Below are positions 1 through 12,053 of a stretch of DNA of 12,053 bases, piece after piece. Within the stretch, counting starts at the first letter, position 1. Each line of letters starts with the position of its first letter. Origin of the DNA: a virus (lineage: Duplodnaviria > Heunggongvirae > Uroviricota > Caudoviricetes); IMG/VR virus record IMGVR_UViG_3300021426_000065, positions 167,173-179,225 of that record. One strand, written 5' to 3'. Position numbers and translations under genes: made by a program. The notes under the pieces are model-generated. The model had not been told where the DNA came from. It saw only the letters and a program-made list of their open reading frames with translations, and searched no databases.

Positions 1-131
1 TAGGCACAGGTTACAGAAGAGATTTATTTATGACGGATTCTAATAATAATCCAATTACTAATGATACTAAAATGGAGATATATACGCCTTCAAAAGAATT
101 AGAAATTGATTGGGAAGGGGAATCTAAATGA
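1..131 (+). CDS. 3' end of an upstream gene, possibly a replicative (DnaB-like) helicase; partial
   Basis: Open frame from position 3: GTGYRRDLFMTDSNNNPITNDTKMEIYTPSKELEIDWEGESK, ending TGA 129-131, which overlaps the primase ATG (ATGA). The helicase call rests only on its position before a primase and a loose resemblance of GTGYRRDLFMTD to phage helicase C-termini. Confidence 0.45.
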   Translation, partial: GTGYRRDLFMTDSNNNPITNDTKMEIYTPSKELEIDWEGESK

Positions 132-1255
132 TAGCTACGCTAGGCGATTTAGATACAGAATTGGATTTAATAGAAATGACTAAAAGAGACATTATGGAAT
201 CTATTACATTAGATGACGTAAAGACTTTTTTAGAAAGTTTGGGAGTTAATCAGATAGCCATGTATCCTGAAAAAGGATATTTAGTATGCCCAACAATTTG
301 TCATAATCCACTTCACGCGGCGGAATCTATGAAATTATATTGGTATCAGAATAATAAGATTTTCCGCTGCTATACTGAATGCAATGAAGCGATGTCCATT
401 TTTACTTTATATAAAAAGTTTATGGACATTAATGAAGATAGAAAAATCTCTGATGACGAAGCAGAGATGTATGTAAAGCATTGCTTAAAACAAATAGTAC
501 ATGTTAATCAGAGAAAAAAATACAAAGATGATTTAGATTTAGAAAAATATAAATATACAAAAAATATTCCTATATTAGATGAATATCCAACGGAAATATT
601 ATCTTACTTTACAAAATACTATCATCCACTATGGTTAAAAGATGGTATTACAAAAGAAGCAATGGATAAGTTTCAAATTAGTTTTTGTATTGGACAAAAT
701 AAAATTGTAATCCCGCATTTTGATATAAATGGCCGTCTAGTTGGTATTCGCGCGCGTTCTATTGAAGAACGTGATATTGAAGAGTATGGAAAATATATGC
801 CGATAAAAATTGGGCCAACAATGTATACACATCAACTTCAATTTAATTTATATGGAATATATGAACACCAGATTGGCATACAATATCGTAGAAGCGCGAT
901 TATCGCAGAAGGAGAAAAATCCGTTTTATTGGATGACGGATATTATGGAGATTTAAGTAATTGTGTTGCTTGCTGCGGTTCTACTTTTAATAAATATCAC
1001 ATTAGTTTATTAACTGATATATTAGGAGCTAATGAGATTATCGTCGCGCTTGACAAAGAATATGAAAATTGCCGCGACGAAAAAGCAAAAAAGTATAAAG
1101 AAAAAATAGTTTCTATGTGTAGAAAATATAAGAATCAAGCGAATTTTTCATACATGTGGGACTTTGATAATGTATTAAAAGAAAAAGATTCCCCGTTTGA
1201 TAGAGGTAAAGATATATTTGAACATTTATATAAAACAAGAGTTAAAGTAAAGTAA
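128..1255 (+). CDS. dnaG: DnaG-like phage DNA primase (N-terminal Zn-binding domain plus TOPRIM domain), 375 aa
   Basis: CPTICH...CYTEC zinc-binding motif; IVIPHFDINGRLVGIRAR primase core motif; TOPRIM IIAEGEKS and IIVALDKE. Purine-rich SD-like GGAAGGGG upstream; ends TAA; no internal TAG. Confidence 0.85.
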   Translation: MIATLGDLDTELDLIEMTKRDIMESITLDDVKTFLESLGVNQIAMYPEKGYLVCPTICHNPLHAAESMKLYWYQNNKIFRCYTECNEAMSIFTLYKKFMDINEDRKISDDEAEMYVKHCLKQIVHVNQRKKYKDDLDLEKYKYTKNIPILDEYPTEILSYFTKYYHPLWLKDGITKEAMDKFQISFCIGQNKIVIPHFDINGRLVGIRARSIEERDIEEYGKYMPIKIGPTMYTHQLQFNLYGIYEHQIGIQYRRSAIIAEGEKSVLLDDGYYGDLSNCVACCGSTFNKYHISLLTDILGANEIIVALDKEYENCRDEKAKKYKEKIVSMCRKYKNQANFSYMWDFDNVLKEKDSPFDRGKDIFEHLYKTRVKVK

Positions 1256-1272
1256 AGGAGAATGAATATGAT

Positions 1273-3045
1273 ATGAAATATAAATTAAGAAATAATTATC
1301 CGGTAAATCCAGCGGAAGCATTACAAGCAATTCTAATTGACCGCGGCGTAAAAGATATAAATAAGTTTTTAAATCCATCTTTTGCATGTGAATTAAATCC
1401 ATATGATTTAGAACATATTGAAGAAGGAGTAGAAATGCTGCTGCGTCATCTTCGCGCGAATAGTAGTATTTTATTCGTAGTAGATGCTGACTGTGATGGA
1501 TTTACAAGCTCTGCAATTTTATGGCTTTATATAAAAAATATTTTCCCACAAGCAGATTTAAATTTTGTTGTCCATGAGCATAAGCAACATGGTTTAAGTG
1601 ATATAATTGATAGTATTGAAGATGACCCGGTTTATAATTTAGTTATTTGCCCAGATAGCGCAAGCTACGATATAAAGGAACATTCAAGATTAGAGCAATT
1701 AGGAATTGATTGCCTGGTTCTTGACCACCACGAACAATTATATGATGATAACGGCAATCCAGTGGTTTCAACCGCGAAGAATACGATTATTATTAATAAT
1801 CAATTGTCTCCAAAATATGAGAATAAGTCTCTATGTGGTGCGGGAGTAGCATATAAATTTTGTGAGGTTTTAGATGATACTCTTGGAGTAGAACTTTCAC
1901 ATAATTATTTAGATTTAACGGCGCTTGGAGAAATTGCCGACGTTATGGATAGAACAACCGCAGAAACAAACTATTTAATGCTTGCTGGACTAGCAAATAT
2001 TCAAAATAAGGGGTTCCAGACTTTACTTGAAGCATAGGCTTACTCCTTAAAAGAAAAAGCGGTATATCCATGGCCCGGTTTAAACCCAATTGATATTGCT
2101 TTTTATATTGCCCCTCTAATTAATGCTATTACGCGCGTAGGTACACGCGCGGAAAAAGAAACAATGTTTTATTGTTTTATTGAACCGGATAGACTAGTAG
2201 CAAGCACGAAACGTGGAGCAAAACTAGGAGACACAGAAACAGCCGCGGAGTAGACCGCGCGAGTAGGAAAAAATGCGAAGTCGCGGCAGGATAAGCTAAA
2301 AGAAAAAGCTATTGATTTAATTGATTTTAAAATTCAAAAAAATGATTTACTTTCTAACAACGTAATTCTTGTAGAATTAGATTCTTCTGATAATATTCAG
2401 CAAGAACTTACTGGCTTAATTGCTATGGCGATTGTTTCTAAATATCATAAACCTGTTATGATTGGCCGCCGCAATAGTCGCGGCGAAGTACAAGGTAGTA
2501 TTCGTAGTGATGGAAACTTTAATGGACTACCAAGTTTCAAAGCATTTCTTGAAAATAGCGGGCTATTAATGTATGCCGCTGGACATGATAATGCTTGTGG
2601 TTGGGGAATTAAAAGTCAAAAAATTGATTCATTAATTGATTATTGTAATAGTCATTTAAATCCAGAAGATTTTGAAAATTGTTATACAGTAGATTATATT
2701 TTAGACGGTAGGCAAGGAAACGCGCAGTTGCTTTATACATTAGCTGAACATCCAGAATACTTTGGTAATCATATAGATGAAATTAAGTTTGTTATTACTG
2801 ATATTGCTCTTGCCAATGTCATGGCCATGGGCACGAATAAAGATAGTATGAAAATCTCATACAATGGCGTTGATTATGTAAGATTCAAAGACGCGGATTT
2901 TGTTGATGAAGTTATGAATAATAGAATGAAAACATTAACTGTGTATGGCCGCGCAAATCTGAATACATTTATGGGAAAAACTTCAATATAGGTTTTTATA
3001 GATGATTATGAATTTAAAACAGACAATAGTAAATATGAATTCTAA
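1273..3045 (+). CDS. recJ: RecJ-like single-stranded DNA exonuclease (DHH/DHHA1), 590 aa with TAG read as Gln
   Basis: Motifs DADCDG, LDHH, SLCGAGVAYK, LGEIADVM, FYIAPLINAITRVG, GSIRS, AAGHDNACG all lie in one frame. In-frame TAG at 2035, 2251 and 2989; the PLINA motif falls in the gap between the two standard-code ORFs. Ends TSI(Q)VFIDDYEFKTDNSKYEF-TAA. AAGGAG at 1255-1260. Confidence 0.92.
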
Positions 3046-3160
3046 AAAATGCTGTGATAATTGTATTTATTACAGTTGGTATTATGATTACTGTAAATTA
3101 TGGGATGTTGAAATAGATTCACGATATATATGTAATAATTATAAGGAGCGAGAAAAATGA
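3035..3160 (+). CDS. Small Cys-rich hypothetical protein, 41 aa
   Basis: MNSKKCCDNCIYYSWYYDYCKLWDVEIDSRYICNNYKEREK. Overlaps the recJ end by 11 nt and its TGA overlaps the next ATG (ATGA). Cys pattern CxxC-x9-C-x12-C. No clear SD site. Confidence 0.6.
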   Translation: MNSKKCCDNCIYYSWYYDYCKLWDVEIDSRYICNNYKEREK

Positions 3161-3369
3161 TTTGCACTGATTGTATATTCGCTTATACTGACCCGAATGA
3201 TGATGAAGATGTTTATAGTTGCCCATTCTCTTTTCAGTATGCGTTCCATAGTAATGAAAAATGTCATTATCCGAAAATGTATGCTGGAATGATAAGAAAA
3301 TTAAGGCCAAAATTAAATCTATATAAGCATATACGAACTGCGATAGTGGAAACACTTGACGAAGATTAA
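3157..3369 (+). CDS. Small Cys-rich hypothetical protein, 70 aa
   Basis: AAGGAG SD at 3143-3148, 8 nt before the ATG. CTDC...C...C pattern; ends TAA. Confidence 0.75.
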   Translation: MICTDCIFAYTDPNDDEDVYSCPFSFQYAFHSNEKCHYPKMYAGMIRKLRPKLNLYKHIRTAIVETLDED

Positions 3370-3384
3370 AAATTATGCTATAAT
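3356..3384 (+). promoter_or_regulatory. Consensus sigma-70/sigma-A promoter with extended -10, upstream of dnaE
   Basis: TTGACG (3356-3361), 17-nt spacer, TG at 3376-3377, TATAAT (3379-3384). SD GAGGTG at 3404-3409 precedes the GTG start at 3415. Confidence 0.85.
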
Positions 3385-3414
3385 AATTACAGAATAATAG
3401 AAAGAGGTGGTTGT

Positions 3415-6400
3415 GTGAGTTTATACCCTGGTTCTTTGCATAATCACACCGATTATAGCAATGAGACACTTCGTGATTGTATAAATAAAGTAAATGCCCT
3501 AATTGATACAGCAATTCAATTAGGGCATGAATGCGTTGCAATTACAGACCATGAGACAATTTCAAGTTATATTAAAGCAGAAAAATATTATAAGAAAATT
3601 AAAGAACAGCATCCAGATTTTAAATTAATTCGCGGCAATGAGATTTATCTAACACGAAATGATTTAAACGCGAAAAACTTTGATAAAACCCGCGATAGAT
3701 ATTTTCACTTTATTCTTTTATGTAAAGATTTAGAAGGTTATCATCAAATTTGTGAATTATCTACAAGGGCATGGAAGCGGTCATATATTAGTCGTAGGTT
3801 GCGGCGGCGTCCAACTTATTATAGAGACTTAAAAGAAATAGTAGGAAAAAATCCGGGACATTTGATTGCTTCAAGTGCTTGCTTAGGTTCGTAGCTAGAT
3901 AGATTTTTACTTCAATATATGGATACCAATGATATTAATTTTTATGAAACAGCAAAGAATTGGTGTTTATATATTCAAAATATTTTTGGTGCTGGAAATT
4001 TTTATTTAGAGATGCAGCCTTCAAATGGGAAAGAACAGGTATTCGTAAACAAACAGTTATTAAAAATTAGTGAAGAATTAAATATTCCATATATTATCAC
4101 AACTGATAGTCATTATCTACGACCAGAAGATGCGTTTATTCATGAAACATTTTTAAATGCACAAGATGGTGAGCGTGAAGTTAAAAGTTTTTATGAAACA
4201 ACTTATATGATGACGGATGAAGAGATTCGTTCATTTTTCCCATATTTAACAGAAGAACAAATTGAGGCCGCGTATAAAACTATTAGAGAAATAAAAGATA
4301 AATGTGAAGATTTTAGTATTTTAAAGCCATTGGAAATTCCTCAACTTCCATGGAGAAAATTTAAGCGGCGGCAACCAGACGAAGTTTTTGCTTTTACAAG
4401 ACTAATGCCAGCATTAGAAAAATTTGTTAAATCTCAATATTATGCCGATAATCAATTAGCATTGGCGCTTATTGAAGGTATTCACGAGCATGAAGATTTA
4501 CAAAATCAAGCGGCATATGATGCTCTTAATGAGTGTCTAGAAATGACCTGGATTTCAAGTGAAGTAAATAAAGCGCAGTGGTCTGCATATTTCTTAAATC
4601 TTCAAAAGATTATAGATGAATGTTGGAACGCGGGAACATTAGTTATGCCCGCACGTGGCTCTGGTGGCGGTTTCTTACTTTTATATGCGTTAGATATTAT
4701 TCAAATTAATTGTCTGCGCGAAAAAACGCCCACGTTCCCATGGAGGTTCTTGAATCCAGCGCGTGTTAGCGTCCTTGATATTGACGTTGATATTTCTGGT
4801 ATTAAACGCGCACAAGTATTGGAACATTTAAGAGATTTCTACGGAGAAAACCGAGTATCAAATGTTGCGACTTTTAAGTTAGAGAAATCAAAATCTGCGA
4901 TATTAACCGCATGCCGCGGTCTTGGTATTGATGTAGATAATGCACAGTATGTTTCTTCATTAATTGGCGCGGAGCGTGGACAACTATATACATTGAAACA
5001 AATGTATTATGGTGATGAAGAAAATGGTCTTCAACCGAATCAGATGTTTATTAATGAAGTAAATAAATATCCAAAATTGTGGGAAGTTGCAAATCGTATC
5101 GAAGGATTGATTTGCGGAATGGGTATTCACGCGGGTGGTGTTGTATTTAAAGATAAAGATTTTACAGAATCTTCTGCCTTAATGCGTGCGCCCGATGGAA
5201 CAATCGTAACTCAATTTGAGCTTCATGATTTGGAAGATGTTTCAGAAATTAAGATGGATTTACTTTCAGTTGAAGCCGCGGATAAAATTCAAGTTTGCTT
5301 GGAAATGTTAGTTAAAGATGGTTATATTAAAGAATATCCAACTTTAAGAGAAACATATGAACATGCATTAAATGTATATCAACTTGAACGCGAAGATCCT
5401 AAAATGTGGGATATGGTACATGACCACAAAATTATTTCACTATTCCAGATGGAAAAAGATAGCGGTATACGCGGTATTGGATTAACAAATCCACGTAATG
5501 TAGATGACCTTGCAACCTTAAACTCCGTTATTCGTCTAATGGCTGCGGAGAAAGGCGCAGAATCACCACTTGATAAGTATGCGCGATTCCGTGAACATCC
5601 TTGGATGTGGGATAAAGAAATGCGCGAATATGGATTGACAGAAGAGCAAATGAAATTAATGCATAAAGAACTTGATATTTCAAATGGTCTTTCTATTACA
5701 CAGGAACAATTTATGAAACTGGTTCAGTTACCAGAATGTGGCGGCTGGGACTTACAATTCGCAGATAAGTTAAGAAAAAGTATTGCAAAAAAGAATCCAA
5801 AAGAATACGAAGAATTAACTGAAAAGTTTTTTAAAGGCATTAAAGAAAAAGGATGCGATGAGCGTTTTTGCCATTATGTATGGGATGTTCAGATTGCATT
5901 AAGCCGCGGCTATGGCTTCAATGCGAGTCACACGCTTGCTTATTCTATAATTGCGCTTCAAGAAATGAATCTAGCATATAAGTATCCAATCGTATATTGG
6001 AACACAGCTAATCTTATCGTAGATAGTGGCGGTGTGCAAACTGTCAATTTTGAAGATGATAATGATGAAGCAATGATTGAAGTAGAATTGGCGCCGGATG
6101 ATGACGCGGTTGATACCACGGCGGAAGATGATGATGAAGAATTAGAAGAGTGGGAAGAGGCAAATAAAGACATTACAACGAATGAAGAAGATAAGAAAAA
6201 GAAAAAGCAAAAGAATATAGATTATGGACGTATCGCGTCTATAATTGGTAAATTAGGTGGATACGGGATTCAAGTTTCACCGCCAGATATTAATAAATCT
6301 TCTTATACATTTACTCCAATCGCGGAAACAAACACAATCCTATACGGACTACGCGGCATCGCACGCATATCCGGAGAAAAAATTACTGAAATTATGGAAC

Positions 6401-7401
6401 AGCGCCCATACTTATCTTTAAGGGACTTTTTAGAAAAGAATAAATTAAATATTATACAGATTGTAAATTTGATTAAATCTGGGGCATTTGATGAAATTGA
6501 AAAAATGCCGCGAGAAGAAATAATGCGGAAGTTTCTTGAATCAACTATTGATAAAAAGGTAGATTTGAATTTAAGAAATATGCAGGCATTGATTACAAAA
6601 GATTTAATTCCAGAAGATATGGTGTTTTATAAGAAGTTATTCTTGTTTAATAAGTTCTTAAAAGATAATAAAGATGGTATTTATTATAGATTAAATGATG
6701 CGGCAATTAATTATATTACAAAGAATTTTGACGCAGATTTAATTGAAAATGGTATGCAGATTTCTCAAAAGGTTTGGGATAACATTTATAAGAAAGCAAT
6801 GGACCCAATGAGAGAATATATAAAAACGCATAAACAAGAAATGCTACAAAAATTAAATGACACGATTTATAATGAAGCCGCGGAAAAATATAGCGGTGGT
6901 AATATAAGTAAATGGGAAATGGATAGTATTAGTTTTTATTATCATGAGCATGAGCTTGCCACTGTGGCCTCACAGTATGATGATTTCTTTACTTTACCAG
7001 AAGAACCAGAAATTGAATATAGTTTTACTGGTACAAATGGACAAGAAATTAGAGTATATACTTTACATAAGATTATTGGTACAGTAATTGATAAAGATAA
7101 ATTACATAATACAGTAACGTTATTAACTCCAACCGGTGTTGTAACTGTTAAAGTATATAAGAATCAGTTTGCGATATATGATAAACAGTTATCGCAACGT
7201 GGTGAAGATGGCAAGAAACACGTTATTGAGAAGAGCTGGTTTAGTCGTGGCACCAAGTTAATGGTACAAGGAATTAGAAGAGAAAATAACTTCATTCCTA
7301 AAAAACGAAAGAACTCAGTATTCCCGGTTATTGCAAAAATTACATCAATAAATGATGATAATTTAACATTCCAGTTTGAACGTGCGGAGGTAGATGAATA
7401 A
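3415..7401 (+). CDS. dnaE: DNA polymerase III alpha subunit (DnaE-type, family C), 1328 aa with one TAG read as Gln
   Basis: PHP motifs HNHTDYS, AITDH, GNEIY, HFILL, SSACLGS(Q)L, TTDSHY; polymerase motifs ARGSGGG, LDIDVD, HAGGV, KMDLL, FQME, GYGFNASHTLAYS; C-terminal OB fold. The single in-frame TAG at 3892-3894 joins ORFs 3415-3894 and 3919-7401. GTG start with SD; ends TAA. Confidence 0.95.
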
Positions 7402-8480
7402 TGATTGGACTTGTTGATTATGATTTCTATTCCGCCTCTGCTATAACAAAATTAATTCCTAACATAGAAATAATGAAGCTTGCAACATACTATAAGGCGG
7501 AAAGAAATATTTTCTGCCGCCTTATAGATTTAAATGAAACGGAATTAACAAATTATGATAAGATATATTTTTTCAGTGAAAGTGAGCGGCCAATTCAAGT
7601 TCCTGACGCATTTAAAAAAACAACAAATATAATTTTTGGTGGCACCAATTTTACTAAAAATTATATTCCATTTGAAGACCAAATTATTGATTATACAATT
7701 CCGCGGCCAGCAATATACAAAGAAATACTTAAAAAGAAATATCAAGAAGGAATTAAATCACATGTAATTACGCATATATTGGACGATAGTTATTATAGGA
7801 TGTTCGCAGGCGACAAGGTATTGCCAATTCCGCCAGTAAAAACAAAAAAGCGTATTTTTATATTTGATAAAGATATATTTCATCCTGGATGGGAAGATGT
7901 TCTTAATAAAGTCGCAGAACGTAATCCAGCAAAAATCTTAACTATTCATCCCGCGCGATGTAAGACCTTAACATAGTATTTTACTTTACGTGGAATTGAA
8001 AAAATGGGTCGCGCGAATGAAATCATTCTTGACTTGGATATTCCACTTGATGAAGTACATTATATGTTAAAAAATTATAAAAATAAATTTTTAGCTGATA
8101 TTACAGAATCTTCTAATGTGTCTATTACGCTTGGTGGTGATTTTAGATATTCAAAGTTTTATTTAGAAGATTTTATATATAAAATGAATATATTATTTTC
8201 TTTTTGGGCTTGCAAAATCCCATTGAAAATTAAATATGAATAGCCATCACTTGGTTATGTAGACCCATTATTCCATCTTTCTAAATTGGTAGAAGGGTGG
8301 ACAAAAGGGCCATCAAAAAAAAATAAATCTTTGGCCGAGCGAACTCTTGTTTAGCAAAGCGGCAAAATCGGACCGGCGCGAGAAGCACGCAATTTATTAC
8401 AAGAAAAATACCCCGCAGCAAAAGATTTATTTAATCATAATTTTACAACACTATCTGCTAAGGGGGTTTGGAGAATATGA
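7401..8480 (+). CDS. Hypothetical protein, 359 aa (TAG=Gln); N-terminus resembles phage radical-SAM/Fe-S oxidoreductase-like proteins but lacks CxxxCxxC
   Basis: One frame from ATG 7401 (TAATG overlap with the dnaE stop, GGAGG SD) through TAG 7974, 8241 and 8352 to TGA 8478-8480, which overlaps the next ATG. IGLVDYD...PNIEIMKLATYYK...YDKIY...GGTN matches my recollection of the IGLIDVD...PNLALMK(L/I)S phage family. The CDS is solid; the family call is tentative. Confidence 0.75.
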
Positions 8481-8692
8481 TAGAAGAAATTATTGCAGAA
8501 AAAGAGCGATTGGATAAAGAATTAAAAATCGCCCTTGCAACTATGGAAAAGAAAAGTACAATAAAAGAAATCCAAGCAAAAATGCGTGTGAATTAGAGCA
8601 GATGCCCGCATTTTGATGCTAGATATAATTTCGTATGGGTTGATGATACTTGCCCATATTGTGGGAAAAAACATGTTGGGAGGCCAGAATAA
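8477..8692 (+). CDS. Small protein with an N-terminal helix and a C-terminal zinc ribbon, 71 aa (TAG=Gln)
   Basis: MIEEIIAEKERLDKELKIALATMEKKSTIKEIQAKMRVN(Q)SRCPHFDARYNFVWVDDTCPYCGKKHVGRPE. TAG at 8594; CPH...CPYCG. ATGA overlap upstream; its TAA directly abuts the next ATG. Confidence 0.8.
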
Positions 8693-8905
8693 ATGATAGT
8701 AAAACTATATACATTACCGAACTGCGGAATATGCCATATGGTAAAAACTAAATTGTAGAATAAAAATATTTTATTTGAAGAACATGACTTCCAAGAAATT
8801 GCTGACGTTATCCATTCTGATCACGCCCCAGCGCTTGAAGTTGAAAATAATATTTATAATAGTCCAACTGAAATAGTGCAATGGATTAATAATTACGAGG
8901 AGTGA
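8693..8905 (+). CDS. nrdH: NrdH/glutaredoxin-like redoxin, 70 aa (TAG=Gln)
   Basis: MIVKLYTLPNCGICHMVKTKL(Q)NKNILFEEHDFQEIADVIHSDHAPALEVENNIYNSPTEIVQWINNYEE. CxxC after beta-1 (LYTLPNCGIC), a cis-Pro-type AP motif and glutaredoxin size. TAG at 8756; GGGAGG SD. Missed by the ORF track. Confidence 0.88.
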
Positions 8906-8910
8906 TTTTA

Positions 8911-10833
8911 ATGGATATTAAAGTTAGATTAAGTAAAAATTTCTAGACTTTATATAATAGATTAAGTGAAAAATACGGCGAAGAAATGGCCTATCTAAAT
9001 GGCTTTGGAGATAAACAATTATCTTATACTGATTTTATAGATAATTTTATAGATAAAGATACTGTCGCGGATGCTTCTGTTGATGGTAATTCAAATGTCG
9101 GCAATAAAGATATGCGTACTTTAATGAATGAGATGCCTAAGCCACATCGGAAACTATTAGCTTTTAATAAAATTTATTATGAAATGAATAAGCGTTATGG
9201 CTTTAAGGACGCAAATGATTGGCTAGAAAAAGAATGGACGAAAGCGCTATACATGCATGATGCTGATACAAGCACTTATGTACATTATTGCTTTGCTTAT
9301 GATTTAAAAGATGTCGCAGAAAAAGGACTATTCTTTTTAAACAATTTTAATGCAGAGCCTCCACGGCATTTAAGCACATTTGTTGATTTTGTAAAAGAAT
9401 TTATTAGTTTCGCGGCAAATCGTAGTTCCGGTGCAGTAGGACTTCCAAATATTATTCCTTATATGTATTATTTCTGGAAGAAAGATTGCGACACTGGATA
9501 TGCAACTAAATCTCCCGAGTATTATGCTAGACAGCAAATTCAGCGATTTGTATATGCTGTTAATTAGCCTTACGTGCGAGATGGAATGCAATCGGCCTTT
9601 ACAAATTGCTCTGTTTTTGACATGGCTTATCTTGAAGCATTATTCGGAGGAGCACAGTTCCCTGACGGGTCTTTCATGATTGATAGTCTTAAAGAAATTC
9701 AAGATTTCCAAAAGGTATTTATGGAAACAATCGCCGAAATTCGTCAACATAATATGTTTACTTTCCCCGTATTAACGATTAGCTTACTTCGTAAAGATGG
9801 AAAATTTAAAGATGAAGAATTCGCGCGCTGGGGCATTGAACATAATAGGAAATGGAGCGATTCAAACTTATTTATTGATGATAGTGTTAATTCATTGAGT
9901 AATTGTTGCCGCTTAAAGAGTAATATTGAAGATTTAGGTTATTTTAATAGTATCGGTGGCACAGCATTAAAAGTTGGTTCTGTTAAAGTATCCACTGTAA
10001 ATTTGGCTAGGCTCGCACTTGAATATCCAGGAGATGAGGATTTGTATCTCGCGGCTTTACATGATTTAGTTGAACTTGATTGTAAGGTGTTAGATTGCGT
10101 GCGCCATATTATTAAACGCAATGTAGAAAAAGGATTGCTACCAAATTTCTCCAAGGGTATTGTAGATTTTGAACATTTATATAATACAGTGGGTATTATT
10201 GGTATTTATGAAACAATGAAAACATTTGGCTACACGCGCGAAGACGAACTTGGCAACGTATATTATACAGAAAAAGCTGATGCTTTCGGCAAGCGCATTT
10301 TTGAGATGCTGCATGCTACAAAAGATAACTTTGCTATTGATAAAGATTATAAGATTAATGTGGAGCAAATTCCAGGTGAATCCGCCGCGGCAAAAATGCA
10401 ATTAGCAGATGAATTCTTTTATCCAGACACGGTTGTAAAAGATTTGCCACTATATGGGAATCAATTCATTCCACTTGGTATTAAAACCACTATGATTGAG
10501 CGCATTCGTATTGCTTCTCTGTTTGATTCATATTGTAATGGTGGTTCTATCGCTCACCTAAACATTGATGCTCCATTTGATAGTTTTGAAAAAGCGTGGA
10601 ACGCTGTTAATTATATTGCCGACCAGGGTTTAACTTATTTTGCCTTTAATACAAAAATTCAAGCTTGTGAAAAAAACCATGCTTTCTATGGTAAGAAATG
10701 CCCCATTTGTGGCGGCGATGTCGCGACTGAATATACACGTATCGTAGGTTTTTATACGCCTATTAAAACTTGGTCCAAAGAAAGAAAGGCCGAATTTAAA
10801 ATGAGGCAATGGGAGAAAATTAATGAAACTTAA
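8911..10833 (+). CDS. nrdD: Anaerobic (class III) ribonucleoside-triphosphate reductase, 640 aa (TAG=Gln)
   Basis: GAGGAG SD 8 nt before ATG 8911. TAG at 8944 and 9565, the second inside YAVN(Q)PYVRDGMQSAFTN. Motifs HYCFAY, SSGAVG, FTFPVLT, SNCCRL, IPGES, Zn site CEKNH...CPICG and glycyl-radical TRIVGF. Ends TAA. Confidence 0.95.
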
Positions 10834-11305
10834 AGGAATAATTGATTGTGATTTTACAAATTATAAAGAACCAGTATTAACGCTAGAATTTCCTAAATGT
10901 AATTTTAAATGTGATAAATTAAATGGTCGCCAAGTTTGCCAAAATAGCGGCTTGGCAGCCGAACCAGATATAGATATTCCTTATGAAAAAATTTGGGAAC
11001 TATATCAACAAAATCCTTTAACCAAAGGTTTTTGTTTTCAAGGTTTGGAACCATTTGATAGCCCAAACGAATTAAATGAAATTATACATTTTATTAGAGA
11101 TGAAAAAAAGTGCAATGACCCAATAATTATTTATACAGGATATGGTCGCGGCGAAGCGTTCTTAATAGAGTATACTTTAAGACATATATTTACTAATATT
11201 ATAGTAAAGTGGGGCCGTTTCGTTCTTGGTGATGAACCACATTATGATGAAGTATTAGGAGTCAATCTAGCAAGTAATAATCAATATGCGGAGAAAGTAT
11301 CATGA
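10823..11305 (+). CDS. nrdG: Anaerobic RNR activating enzyme (radical SAM), 160 aa
   Basis: Directly follows nrdD (11-nt overlap). C-NFK-C-x8-C-QN motif, GFCFQGLEPF, IYTGY, IIVKWGRF and LASNNQY, typical of NrdG. Confidence 0.9.
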   Translation: MKLKGIIDCDFTNYKEPVLTLEFPKCNFKCDKLNGRQVCQNSGLAAEPDIDIPYEKIWELYQQNPLTKGFCFQGLEPFDSPNELNEIIHFIRDEKKCNDPIIIYTGYGRGEAFLIEYTLRHIFTNIIVKWGRFVLGDEPHYDEVLGVNLASNNQYAEKVS

Positions 11306-11499
11306 AAAAGCATTTGAATCCAGATAAAGAACTTGTAAATATTATTATAGAAGGATTAAAAAATAATCAAAGTTATTGTCCTTGTATTTATAATAGTTTA
11401 AATAAGCCAGAATATAAATGCCCATGCCAAGATTTTAGAGAAAAAACACAAATTGGTGAAGCATGTCATTGCGGCTTATATATAAAAGATGAAATGTAA
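11302..11499 (+). CDS. ftrB: Ferredoxin:thioredoxin reductase catalytic (beta) subunit-like protein, 65 aa
   Basis: YCPC...CPC...CHCGLY is the FTR catalytic-chain signature (4Fe-4S ligands plus redox-active disulfide). ATGA overlap with nrdG; GGAG SD; ends TAA. Confidence 0.88.
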   Translation: MKKHLNPDKELVNIIIEGLKNNQSYCPCIYNSLNKPEYKCPCQDFREKTQIGEACHCGLYIKDEM

Positions 11500-11501
11500 T
11501 C

Positions 11502-11532
11502 GCGGGAGAAAATTTCTCCCGCACCTTTTTAT
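11502..11532 (+). terminator. Rho-independent terminator after the RNR operon
   Basis: GCGGGAGAA-AAT-TTCTCCCGC perfect 9-bp stem (11502-11522) starting 2 nt after the ftrB stop, followed by ACCTTTTTATTT. Confidence 0.85.
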
Positions 11533-11561
11533 TTGACTTTTTATCCATTTTCTGTTATAAT
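11533..11561 (+). promoter_or_regulatory. Consensus sigma-70/sigma-A promoter with extended -10
   Basis: TTGACT (11533-11538), 17-nt spacer, TG at 11553-11554, TATAAT (11556-11561). SD GAGGTG at 11580-11585 precedes ATG 11590. Confidence 0.85.
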
Positions 11562-11589
11562 ATAATAAAGAAATTATGAGAGGTGTGAT

Positions 11590-12053
11590 ATGAAAGTCGG
11601 AATTATTGTAGTATTAATAATTTGTATTATTGTTCTGATAATAAAACTTACATAGAAAACAGTTTTAGATGAAAGCCGCAAAAATTAGCTTGAATAGGAA
11701 GTTAATAATCTTGAAGAAGAGTTGGATTCATTAGAAAATGAAATCCAAATAAAGTAGAACTCCTATCATGATTTGATTAATAATAAGATTAAGAATTTGG
11801 ATAATCTTCTTGCGGAGCAAGAAAAGTAGCGGCAAAAAGATTTTGAAGATAAGTGGTTTGCGAAAGATGCAACCGCGGCGGAATAGTTTGCCAATACAGA
11901 AACCTATTATAAGTAGGAAGCCGCGTAGCTAGAAGCAAACTTATAGTAGGTTCAAAAAGATATTGATAACAAAATTGAAATTCTTCAAAATAATTATAAT
12001 TAGGAAGAAGAAAAATTTAAAGCACTTCTTGGACCGCTTCAACAATATGATAA
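11590..12053 (+). CDS. Membrane-anchored coiled-coil protein, 5' part (at least 154 aa, TAG=Gln), runs off the window
   Basis: MKVGIIVVLIICIIVLIIKLT(Q)KTVLDESRKN(Q)LE(Q)EVNNLEEELDSLENEIQIK(Q)NSY... An N-terminal hydrophobic helix followed by heptad-like E/Q/K/L-rich sequence. The frame has 11 TAG and no TAA or TGA. It has its own promoter and SD. Entirely missed by the ORF track. Confidence 0.88.

Follow-up and report, generated by a model that had tools for sequence, protein, structure and literature searches.

The question raised by this stretch of viral DNA is how genes interrupted by the triplet TAG are to be read. The stretch, here called the window, comprises 12,053 nucleotides (positions 167,173 to 179,225 of the IMG/VR record IMGVR_UViG_3300021426_000065, a virus of the Caudoviricetes) and is the last 12 kb of that record of 179,225 bp. 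A preliminary description, made from the letters of the window, proposed that TAG encodes glutamine (Gln) as in genetic code 15. We followed this proposal through the window, the whole genome and its relatives. TAG is a sense codon in this genome and stands for Gln. We are highly confident of the full explanation, in which TAG is an ordinary Gln codon, only TAA and TGA terminate, and decoding is done by a phage tRNA with the anticodon CUA, tRNA(CUA), whose gene is split by an intron and which is charged by the host.

The phage genome, assembled as a circle of about 179 kb, comes from the ruminant gut, and the window forms its end devoted to replication and nucleotide metabolism. A comparison of the record's ends found its first and last 144 bases to be identical but for one mismatch, which means that the assembly closes on itself, and the completeness stated for the record by CheckV is 100%. 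The G+C content of the genome is 36.7%. The sequence is present in sequencing runs of gut metagenomes (sheep, bovine and goat), and a megablast search of GenBank phages with the window gave no match. For relatives we scanned IMG/VR with the anaerobic ribonucleotide reductase NrdD of the window, which resulted in 80 related loci (66-99% NrdD identity, up to 10 kb on each side). Two complete relatives (G001 and G002) were retrieved whole for genome-wide comparison.

TAG as a sense codon

Every in-frame TAG of the window was located. There are 22 of them, in the following seven genes (positions in the window; ORF, open reading frame; aa, amino acids):

1273..3045, + strand: RecJ-like exonuclease, 590 aa; TAG at 2035, 2251, 2989; ends TAA; DHH, DHHA1 and RecJ_OB domains
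3415..7401, + strand: DNA polymerase of the PolIII-alpha type (DnaE), like YorL of phage SPbeta, 1328 aa; TAG at 3892; ends TAA; Pfam domains PHP, DNA_pol3_alpha, finger and HHH_6
7401..8480, + strand: ORF7401, of no known family, 359 aa; TAG at 7974, 8241, 8352; ends TGA
8468..8692, + strand: Zn-ribbon-like ORF, 74 aa; TAG at 8594; ends TAA
8693..8905, + strand: NrdH/glutaredoxin-like gene, 70 aa; TAG at 8756; ends TGA; Glutaredoxin domain
8902..10833, + strand: NrdD, 643 aa; TAG at 8944, 9565; ends TAA; NRDD domain, E 6e-91
11590..12053, + strand: last ORF, open-ended in the window; 11 TAGs within the window, making up 61% of its Gln codons there (11653, 11686, 11695, 11755, 11827, 11884, 11914, 11926, 11944, 11947, 12001)

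The 11 coding frames of the window hold these 22 TAG and not one TAA or TGA; off frame, the same window has 164 TAG, 364 TAA and 289 TGA. If the in-frame stop triplets followed the off-frame proportions, the chance of finding TAG 22 times out of 22 would be about 0.2^22. The 12 gene ends, counting those of a 52-aa ORF at 3002-3160 and of an upstream gene ending at 131, are seven TAA and five TGA, and none is TAG. Translation table 11 splits the TAG-bearing genes, and reading TAG as sense fuses them into a RecJ of 590 aa, a DnaE of 1328 aa and an NrdD of 643 aa. Pfam domains run across the TAGs in these fused products (NRDD at residues 89-636, PHP at 8-202 and RecJ_OB at 478-578). The density of TAG varies from 0 in three genes (a 375-aa ORF, an NrdG-like and an FTR-like gene), through 0.75 per 1000 codons in the polymerase, to about 42 per 1000 in the last ORF, the most TAG-rich gene of the window. 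Our recount returns exactly what the preliminary description had given for the window: the number of TAGs in each gene, the lack of premature TAA or TGA, the 12 gene ends and a tandem TAGTAG at 11944-11949.

Genome-wide, we compared the ORFs obtained under four readings of the stop codons:

Table 11: ORF coverage 64%, mean ORF length 170 aa
TAG as sense: ORF coverage 87%, mean ORF length 305 aa
TGA as sense: ORF coverage 69%, mean ORF length 171 aa
TAA as sense: ORF coverage 81%, mean ORF length 179 aa

The comparison of coding density under codes 11 and 15, which had been suggested as a check, thus comes out in favour of code 15 (64% versus 87%). Coverage alone discriminates weakly between codes, since reading TAA as sense in an AT-rich genome also reaches 81%. 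That reading yields many short, spurious ORFs, as expected at 37% G+C, and the codes are told apart by mean ORF length (305 versus 179 aa) and by homology. Among ORFs of at least 100 aa, 452 in-frame TAGs are found in 145 ORFs, which corresponds to 9.1 per 1000 codons and to 25% of the Gln codons; the Gln content rises from 2.7% to 3.65% when TAG is counted as Gln. These 145 ORFs end in TAA (99) or TGA (46). Their last 10 codons hold 5 TAGs where 13 are expected, and this lack of a 3'-end excess speaks against TAG serving as a terminator. Routine gene ends in TAG, which had been named as a finding that would count against recoding, do therefore not occur in the rest of the genome. Per 10-kb bin, the density ranges from 0.3 to 27 TAGs per 1000 codons, with a peak in the structural genes and low values in the replication genes.

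The two complete relatives are recoded as well, and reading TAG as sense lifts their ORF coverage from 58% to 89% and from 60% to 88%. Most loci with an NrdD identity of at least 79% carry the same recoding signature. In more distant loci TAG is scarce in frame and as a stop alike, in agreement with the published model in which genomes lose TAG before they are recoded (Borges et al., bioRxiv 10.1101/2021.08.26.457843). Among the replication modules of the relatives there are also several 20-kb loci with no TAG at all, in frame or as stop (L036, L043 and L088). TAG avoidance in the replication module therefore varies among close relatives of one clade.

The amino acid inserted at TAG

To assign the residue, the window genes were aligned to the stop-to-stop translations of the 80 loci and the codon opposite each window TAG was read. 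Over all window TAG columns (about 440 aligned codons), Gln is found 210 times, followed by Thr (41), Glu (36), Asn (21), Asp (21), TAG itself (20) and Ser (4). The single columns are as follows:

NrdD residue 222 (TAG 9565, NQP motif): Gln in 79 of 79 relatives
RecJ residue 573 (TAG 2989): Gln in 29 of 30, TAG in 1
RecJ residue 255 (TAG 2035): Gln in 21 of 28
RecJ, TAG 2251: Gln 18, Glu 12
Zn-ribbon residue 43 (TAG 8594): Gln in 15 of 17, TAG in 2 of 17
Polymerase, TAG 3892: variable, Gln 11, Ala 11, Glu 6
ORF7401, its TAG columns: variable (Asp, Glu, Lys), with Gln or TAG in some relatives
NrdH-like gene, TAG 8756: variable, Asn 6, Gln 4, His 3
NrdD, TAG 8944: variable, Thr 36, Gln 19

We then calculated per-column log-likelihoods with an empirical substitution matrix from the same alignments, all columns being weighted equally. 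Gln is the best residue at the window TAGs, 16 nats ahead of Glu. The same holds for 391 TAG columns of the whole genome aligned to the two complete relatives (Gln 96, TAG 53, Glu 31, Lys 28), in which Gln leads by 232 nats and Ser comes out 304 nats worse. The TAG columns of ORF pairs with at least 80% identity hold Gln 13 times and TAG once. The TAGs of the relatives, in turn, most often face a Gln of this genome. Known structures point the same way: the NrdD structures of T. maritima (4u3e/4coi) have Q in the NQP motif opposite TAG 9565, and the best RecJ in PDB (8y30) has Q opposite TAGs 2251 and 2989 (residues 327 and 573). The polymerase column holds E in the Thermus enzyme. The assignment of TAG to Gln made in the preliminary description is thus borne out, and so is its observation that the context of TAG in NrdD fits Gln, given the pure Gln column at residue 222 and the T. 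maritima enzyme. Ser, Lys or pyrrolysine (Pyl), and Glu were tried as alternatives and rejected, as codon columns and log-likelihood favour Gln.

A suppressor tRNA split by an intron

A suppressor tRNA with a CUA anticodon had been predicted to lie elsewhere in the genome. The gene exists, only in an intron-split form that default ARAGORN misses: in this mode no CUA tRNA was found in the window or the genome, and the genome gave 17 tRNAs in an island at 111.6-123.6 kb. With introns allowed, ARAGORN adds two genes, a tRNA-Leu(UAA) and the tRNA(CUA). Its very lax mode gave hundreds of false calls and was disregarded. The tRNA(CUA) gene is located as follows:

Genome 117710-117978, 49 kb upstream of the window: tRNA(CUA) gene, interrupted by an insertion of 177 nt between U35 and A36 of the anticodon

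The joined exons form an intact tRNA(cta) of 92 nt with an encoded CCA, which ARAGORN labels 'Pyl' by its anticodon, and a sigma-70-like promoter (TTGACT, 17 nt, TATAAT) precedes the gene. At its acceptor end the spliced tRNA has an A1.C72 mismatch, G2:C71 and G73. Its variable region of 21 nt carries an extra arm, whose 7-nt loop, C-U-C-U-G-A-A, copies the anticodon loop of tRNA-Gln(CUG).

The insertion matches the Rfam family Intron_gpI (RF00028) over model positions 1-253 with 49.3 bits (E 4e-11) against a threshold of 50. The match came from an Rfam scan of 1.65 kb; a scan of 16 kb missed the intron. In the Rfam alignment the P1 helix sets the last U of the exon opposite a G, so that the 5' splice site has a U.G wobble, and the final base of the insertion is G. 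Across the junction, the sequence of intronless alleles in other phages is exactly GGTCTCTAAAACC, equal to the joined exons, and the 5' half of one of them (L167) is nearly identical to this gene. Together with the splice-site features, these alleles give good support to the exon boundaries. Since the intron sits between U35 and A36, the CUA anticodon is present only after splicing, which we infer to be self-splicing from the group I features of the intron.

A BLAST search with the tRNA and its intron against five large relatives gave one weak match. This can be explained by the alleles of the two relatives retrieved whole, as one is intronless and the other has an intron of about 300 nt that ARAGORN parses wrongly. 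The intronless suppressor allele is at 51768-51854 of G001. In G002, the record that contains locus L031 (91% NrdD identity), the same type of suppressor lies at 101724-102120 with the longer intron at the same site, mis-called tRNA-Leu(aag). The presence of the intron is therefore polymorphic within the clade.

A release factor or aminoacyl-tRNA synthetase of the phage's own had also been considered possible. This did not find support: neither the RF-1 domain PF00472 nor the GlnRS/GluRS (glutaminyl-/glutamyl-tRNA synthetase) catalytic domain PF00749 has a match in the 179-kb genome, and both match in control genomes. With no GlnRS or GluRS encoded by the phage, it must be a host enzyme that charges the tRNA with Gln.

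The same island holds other RNA features. The tRNA-Leu(UAA) gene (genome 116477-117288; L001 6477-7288) carries a 726-nt insertion, placed in the anticodon loop by ARAGORN, with an HNH endonuclease ORF inside; its Rfam group I match is weak and partial (17.3 bits). Two Rfam matches below threshold are a cow-rumen-3 RNA (60 bits, threshold 87) and a YrlA RNA (33 bits, threshold 69), at L001 6081-6180 and 5718-5827 respectively.

A family of long-arm tRNA(CUA)

The extra arm is not confined to this genome. Three relatives with differing acceptor and T stems have the motif CCUCUGAAG in the variable region in common. A pattern scan with this motif fixed returned 61 IMG/VR stretches; about 50 of these are CUA tRNAs, some intronless and some carrying an intron of 174-177 nt. 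A second scan, whose pattern prescribed just the anticodon stem-loop and the T loop, returned CUA tRNAs with short and with long variable regions alike. CUG and UUG are the Gln anticodons, and about 12 of the 17 long-arm members that lack the exact motif in the second scan keep one of them central in a 7-nt hairpin loop. At least 45 distinct long-arm tRNA(CUA) sequences of phages were gathered. In some phages a short-variable and a long-arm tRNA(CUA) are adjacent, as in L120 at 1226-1366 (IMG/VR 3300045988_146396).

The family shows the marks of a conserved structure. Among 34 aligned members the cloverleaf is paired to 91%, compared with 73% in shuffles, and 20 of the 24 pairs have changed on both sides. 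The three pairs of the extra arm are formed in every aligned member, with compensatory changes. At the acceptor end, 40 of 45 members have a weak or mismatched 1:72, 38 of 45 have G73 and 37 of 45 have G2:C71. As judged from these identities the acceptor end fits a tRNA-Gln; the short-arm CUA tRNAs are heterogeneous at 1:72, 2:71 and 73. The anticodon loop holds CUA and not the triplet YUG (U35, G36), which is found only in the loop of the extra arm. Between the extra-arm hairpin and the T stem lie 5-7 unpaired bases. To our knowledge this is unlike the variable arms of Ser, Leu or Tyr tRNAs, and it is what a second anticodon arm, added beside the ordinary one, would look like.

This leads to the hypothesis that this phage, like many TAG-recoded phages, uses a natural amber suppressor with two arms. 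The working arm would read UAG, and the second arm, with its intact Gln anticodon, would either recruit the host enzyme that charges glutamine or swap into the anticodon position; in this genome the working anticodon would be made only by group I self-splicing. We put this forward tentatively and would not yet call it probable, although it is far from remote. Neither a natural Gln pseudo-anticodon arm nor an intron-split suppressor turned up in a keyword search of the literature, which is no proof of absence; what came closest to the arm was an engineered His pseudo-anticodon arm (PMC7590224).

In the explanation that we favour, decoding runs as follows. A tRNA(CUA) from the tRNA island reads TAG as Gln, after probable self-splicing of the group I intron has joined U35 to A36 and so created the CUA anticodon. 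Host GlnRS, or GluRS together with an amidotransferase, would load Gln on it, and the spare arm might supply the G36 contact that is lost in CUA. The suppressor would compete with the RF1 of the host and presumably outcompete it. The uneven density of TAG may have regulatory value.

Comparison with known systems

Lak megaphages are among the code-15 gut phages. TAG-to-Gln recoding was noted as known from the outset, and it is published for many clades, for instance for crAss-like gut phages with validation by metaproteomic peptides (Peters et al. 2022, PMC9523058), for several phage clades by Borges et al. and for phAss-1 (PMC10607447). This genome resembles the code-15 gut phages in its low G+C content, in having in-frame TAG in conserved genes where homologues have Gln, in the rarity of TAG as a stop in its relatives, in its phage tRNA(CUA), and in a TAG density that peaks in structural genes, at up to 27 per 1000 codons, and is low in replication genes. 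It differs from them in belonging to a different, uncultured lineage, in having TAG also in early-type genes (DNA polymerase, RecJ, NrdD), in its intron-split suppressor gene and in that no RF2 or aminoacyl-tRNA synthetase was found. The code-change module described by Borges et al. combines a suppressor tRNA with an aminoacyl-tRNA synthetase and with a release factor, whereas this genome has no PF00472 or PF00749 match.

Three further systems resemble parts of the decoding tRNA. The supE-type amber suppressor of E. coli is a tRNA-Gln with a CUA anticodon and an ordinary short variable loop. The phage tRNA has the same anticodon and insertion of Gln, a weak first acceptor pair, G2:C71 and G73. 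In contrast to supE, with its G3:C70, most phage members have C3:G70, many are mismatched at 1:72, and an extra arm of 17-25 nt shows a second, intact Gln anticodon loop. Group I introns are known from the anticodon loops of bacterial tRNAs, such as cyanobacterial tRNA-Leu(UAA) and Azoarcus tRNA-Ile (RF00028), and the intron found here shares with them the anticodon-loop site, the U.G at the 5' splice site, the terminal G and the end-to-end RF00028 match. The tRNA-Leu(UAA) of this genome carries the classic intron of this kind, here 726 nt long with its HNH endonuclease ORF. The intron of tRNA(CUA) differs in that its host gene is a stop-codon suppressor, its site is inside the anticodon triplet (35/36), its length is only 177 nt and its score is 49.3 bits against 50. 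Allo-tRNAs with an engineered pseudo-anticodon arm in the variable arm were designed for HisRS fusions, and in that work a variable-region hairpin that copies the anticodon arm can increase charging by an anticodon-reading synthetase (Mukai 2020, PMC7590224). Unlike this synthetic His design, the phage arm is natural, recurrent in phages and specific for the Gln anticodon, and its function is a prediction.

Alternative explanations

Could the TAGs be real stops, in pseudogenes, split genes or genes with inefficient read-through, or could they be assembly errors? The pieces left by table 11 remain sizeable ORFs, and the genome is a metagenome assembly. This explanation is already contradicted, however, and we give it practically no weight, as only TAG and never TAA or TGA occurs in frame and as essential single-copy genes such as the DNA polymerase and NrdD are hit, whose domains extend across the TAG. 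Some of the TAGs recur in independent assemblies from other samples, which have CAA or CAG at the remaining ones, two complete relatives show the same jump in coverage, and the genome encodes a matching tRNA(CUA). It is hardly more probable that TAG is sense for another residue, be it Glu, Lys, pyrrolysine, or Ser inserted by a type II-like tRNA with G73 that SerRS charges without reading the anticodon. The 21-nt variable region and G73 of the spliced tRNA(CUA) and its 'Pyl' label would suit such a reading, and in relatives Glu, Lys, Asn or Thr stands in several of the TAG columns. Yet Ser is found opposite the window TAGs 4 times against 210 for Gln, and the invariant columns are pure Gln (79 of 79 at NrdD 222, 29 of 30 at RecJ 573). 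The next residue is 16 nats behind in the window and 232 nats genome-wide, with Ser worse by 304 nats, and the acceptor has no G1:C72, its 1:72 being weak or mismatched as in tRNA-Gln.

A third possibility accepts Gln and makes the host responsible: it would read TAG as sense or supply the suppressor, and the split phage gene would be a non-functional relic. Splicing and charging of the phage tRNA are indeed read from its sequence, and Borges et al. detected a suppressor tRNA in only 40% of the phages with a recoded TAG. A relic would hardly be expected to belong to a conserved tRNA family with compensatory changes in every helix, to keep the group I core structure with exact splice-site features in its intron, or to have intronless alleles in recoded relatives. 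For these reasons host-dependent decoding seems very improbable to us, as improbable as another residue. We also know of no bacterial lineage in which TAG means Gln.

Several points weigh against Gln decoding by the intron-split phage tRNA. About half of the window TAG columns are variable and individually uninformative, and the assignment to Gln comes from sequence and not from peptides. A long extra arm with G73 also suits SerRS, and a minor insertion of Ser would still be compatible with the alignments by which it was judged. The intron scores 0.7 bit below the curated Rfam threshold. At the tRNA locus, contigs of four metatranscriptome runs show only the intronless allele of a relative and are uninformative on the splicing of this allele. 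The loop motif was fixed in the pattern of the first scan, so that only the second is unbiased for it. The charging enzyme would depend on the host, and GlnRS and GluRS with an amidotransferase are both candidates.

Other features of the window

The remaining features are listed here; for the promoter-like sites and the terminator-like hairpin the evidence is a consensus match only:

128..1255, + strand: TAG-free ORF, 375 aa; ends TAA
3002-3160: small TAG-free Cys-rich ORF, 52 aa; ends TGA
3157-3369: small TAG-free Cys-rich ORF, 70 aa; ends TAA
3356..3384, + strand: promoter-like site of the sigma-70 type with extended -10 (TTGACG, 17 nt, TG-n-TATAAT; 11 of 12 consensus matches)
10823-11305: NrdG-like gene, TAG-free; ends TGA
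11302-11499: FTR-like gene, TAG-free; ends TAA
11502-11522, + strand: terminator-like hairpin, followed by a promoter-like site
11533-11561, + strand: promoter-like site (TTGACT, 17 nt, TATAAT)

The 375-aa ORF has Cys/His motifs and an acidic EGEKS...DxD-like stretch, and is possibly a primase by these motifs; it has no Pfam match at E 0.01. The two Cys-rich ORFs overlap by ATGA and lie between recJ and the polymerase promoter, and the 70-aa one has a match in only 2 of the 80 relatives. The promoter-like site at 3356..3384 precedes the polymerase gene. The nearest cultured relative of this polymerase is YorL of the Bacillus phage SPbeta (37% identity). Near-consensus sigma-70 promoters with extended -10 boxes, together with this affinity to SPbeta, suggest a Firmicute host.

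The hairpin and the promoter-like site downstream of the FTR-like gene would mark off the TAG-rich last ORF as a separate transcription unit. This ORF crosses the contig junction and resumes at 145-613 of the genome, where it ends with TAA at 613, so that its full length is 310 aa with 13 TAGs. Its product combines a membrane helix at the N-terminus with a coiled coil, and its C-terminal domain is read as GIY-YIG-like from motifs of the translation, not from a family search. A membrane helix and a coiled coil joined to a GIY-YIG-like end would be an unusual architecture for a nuclease domain.

Implications

The recoding of this genome is a further case of the published TAG-to-Gln recoding of phages. 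Its interest is mainly in the decoding tRNA, which sits outside the window. The standard code loses or fragments about one quarter of the coding sequence, including the DNA polymerase, RecJ, NrdD and nearly all structural genes, so code 15 is required for any gene catalogue of this clade of rumen phages. As TAG is found in replication genes as well as in late genes, suppression must be active early, which limits a simple model of recoding as a late-gene switch for this lineage.

With its intron-split suppressor, this genome gives one concrete example of why the suppressors of recoded phages escape tRNA finders. If the two-arm model is true, it would explain how host enzymes load Gln onto the suppressors, and it would account in part for the about 60% of TAG-recoded phage genomes in which no suppressor tRNA is detected. 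The recurrent spare arm with a Gln anticodon offers a testable hypothesis for how a host synthetase may charge a tRNA with an altered anticodon.

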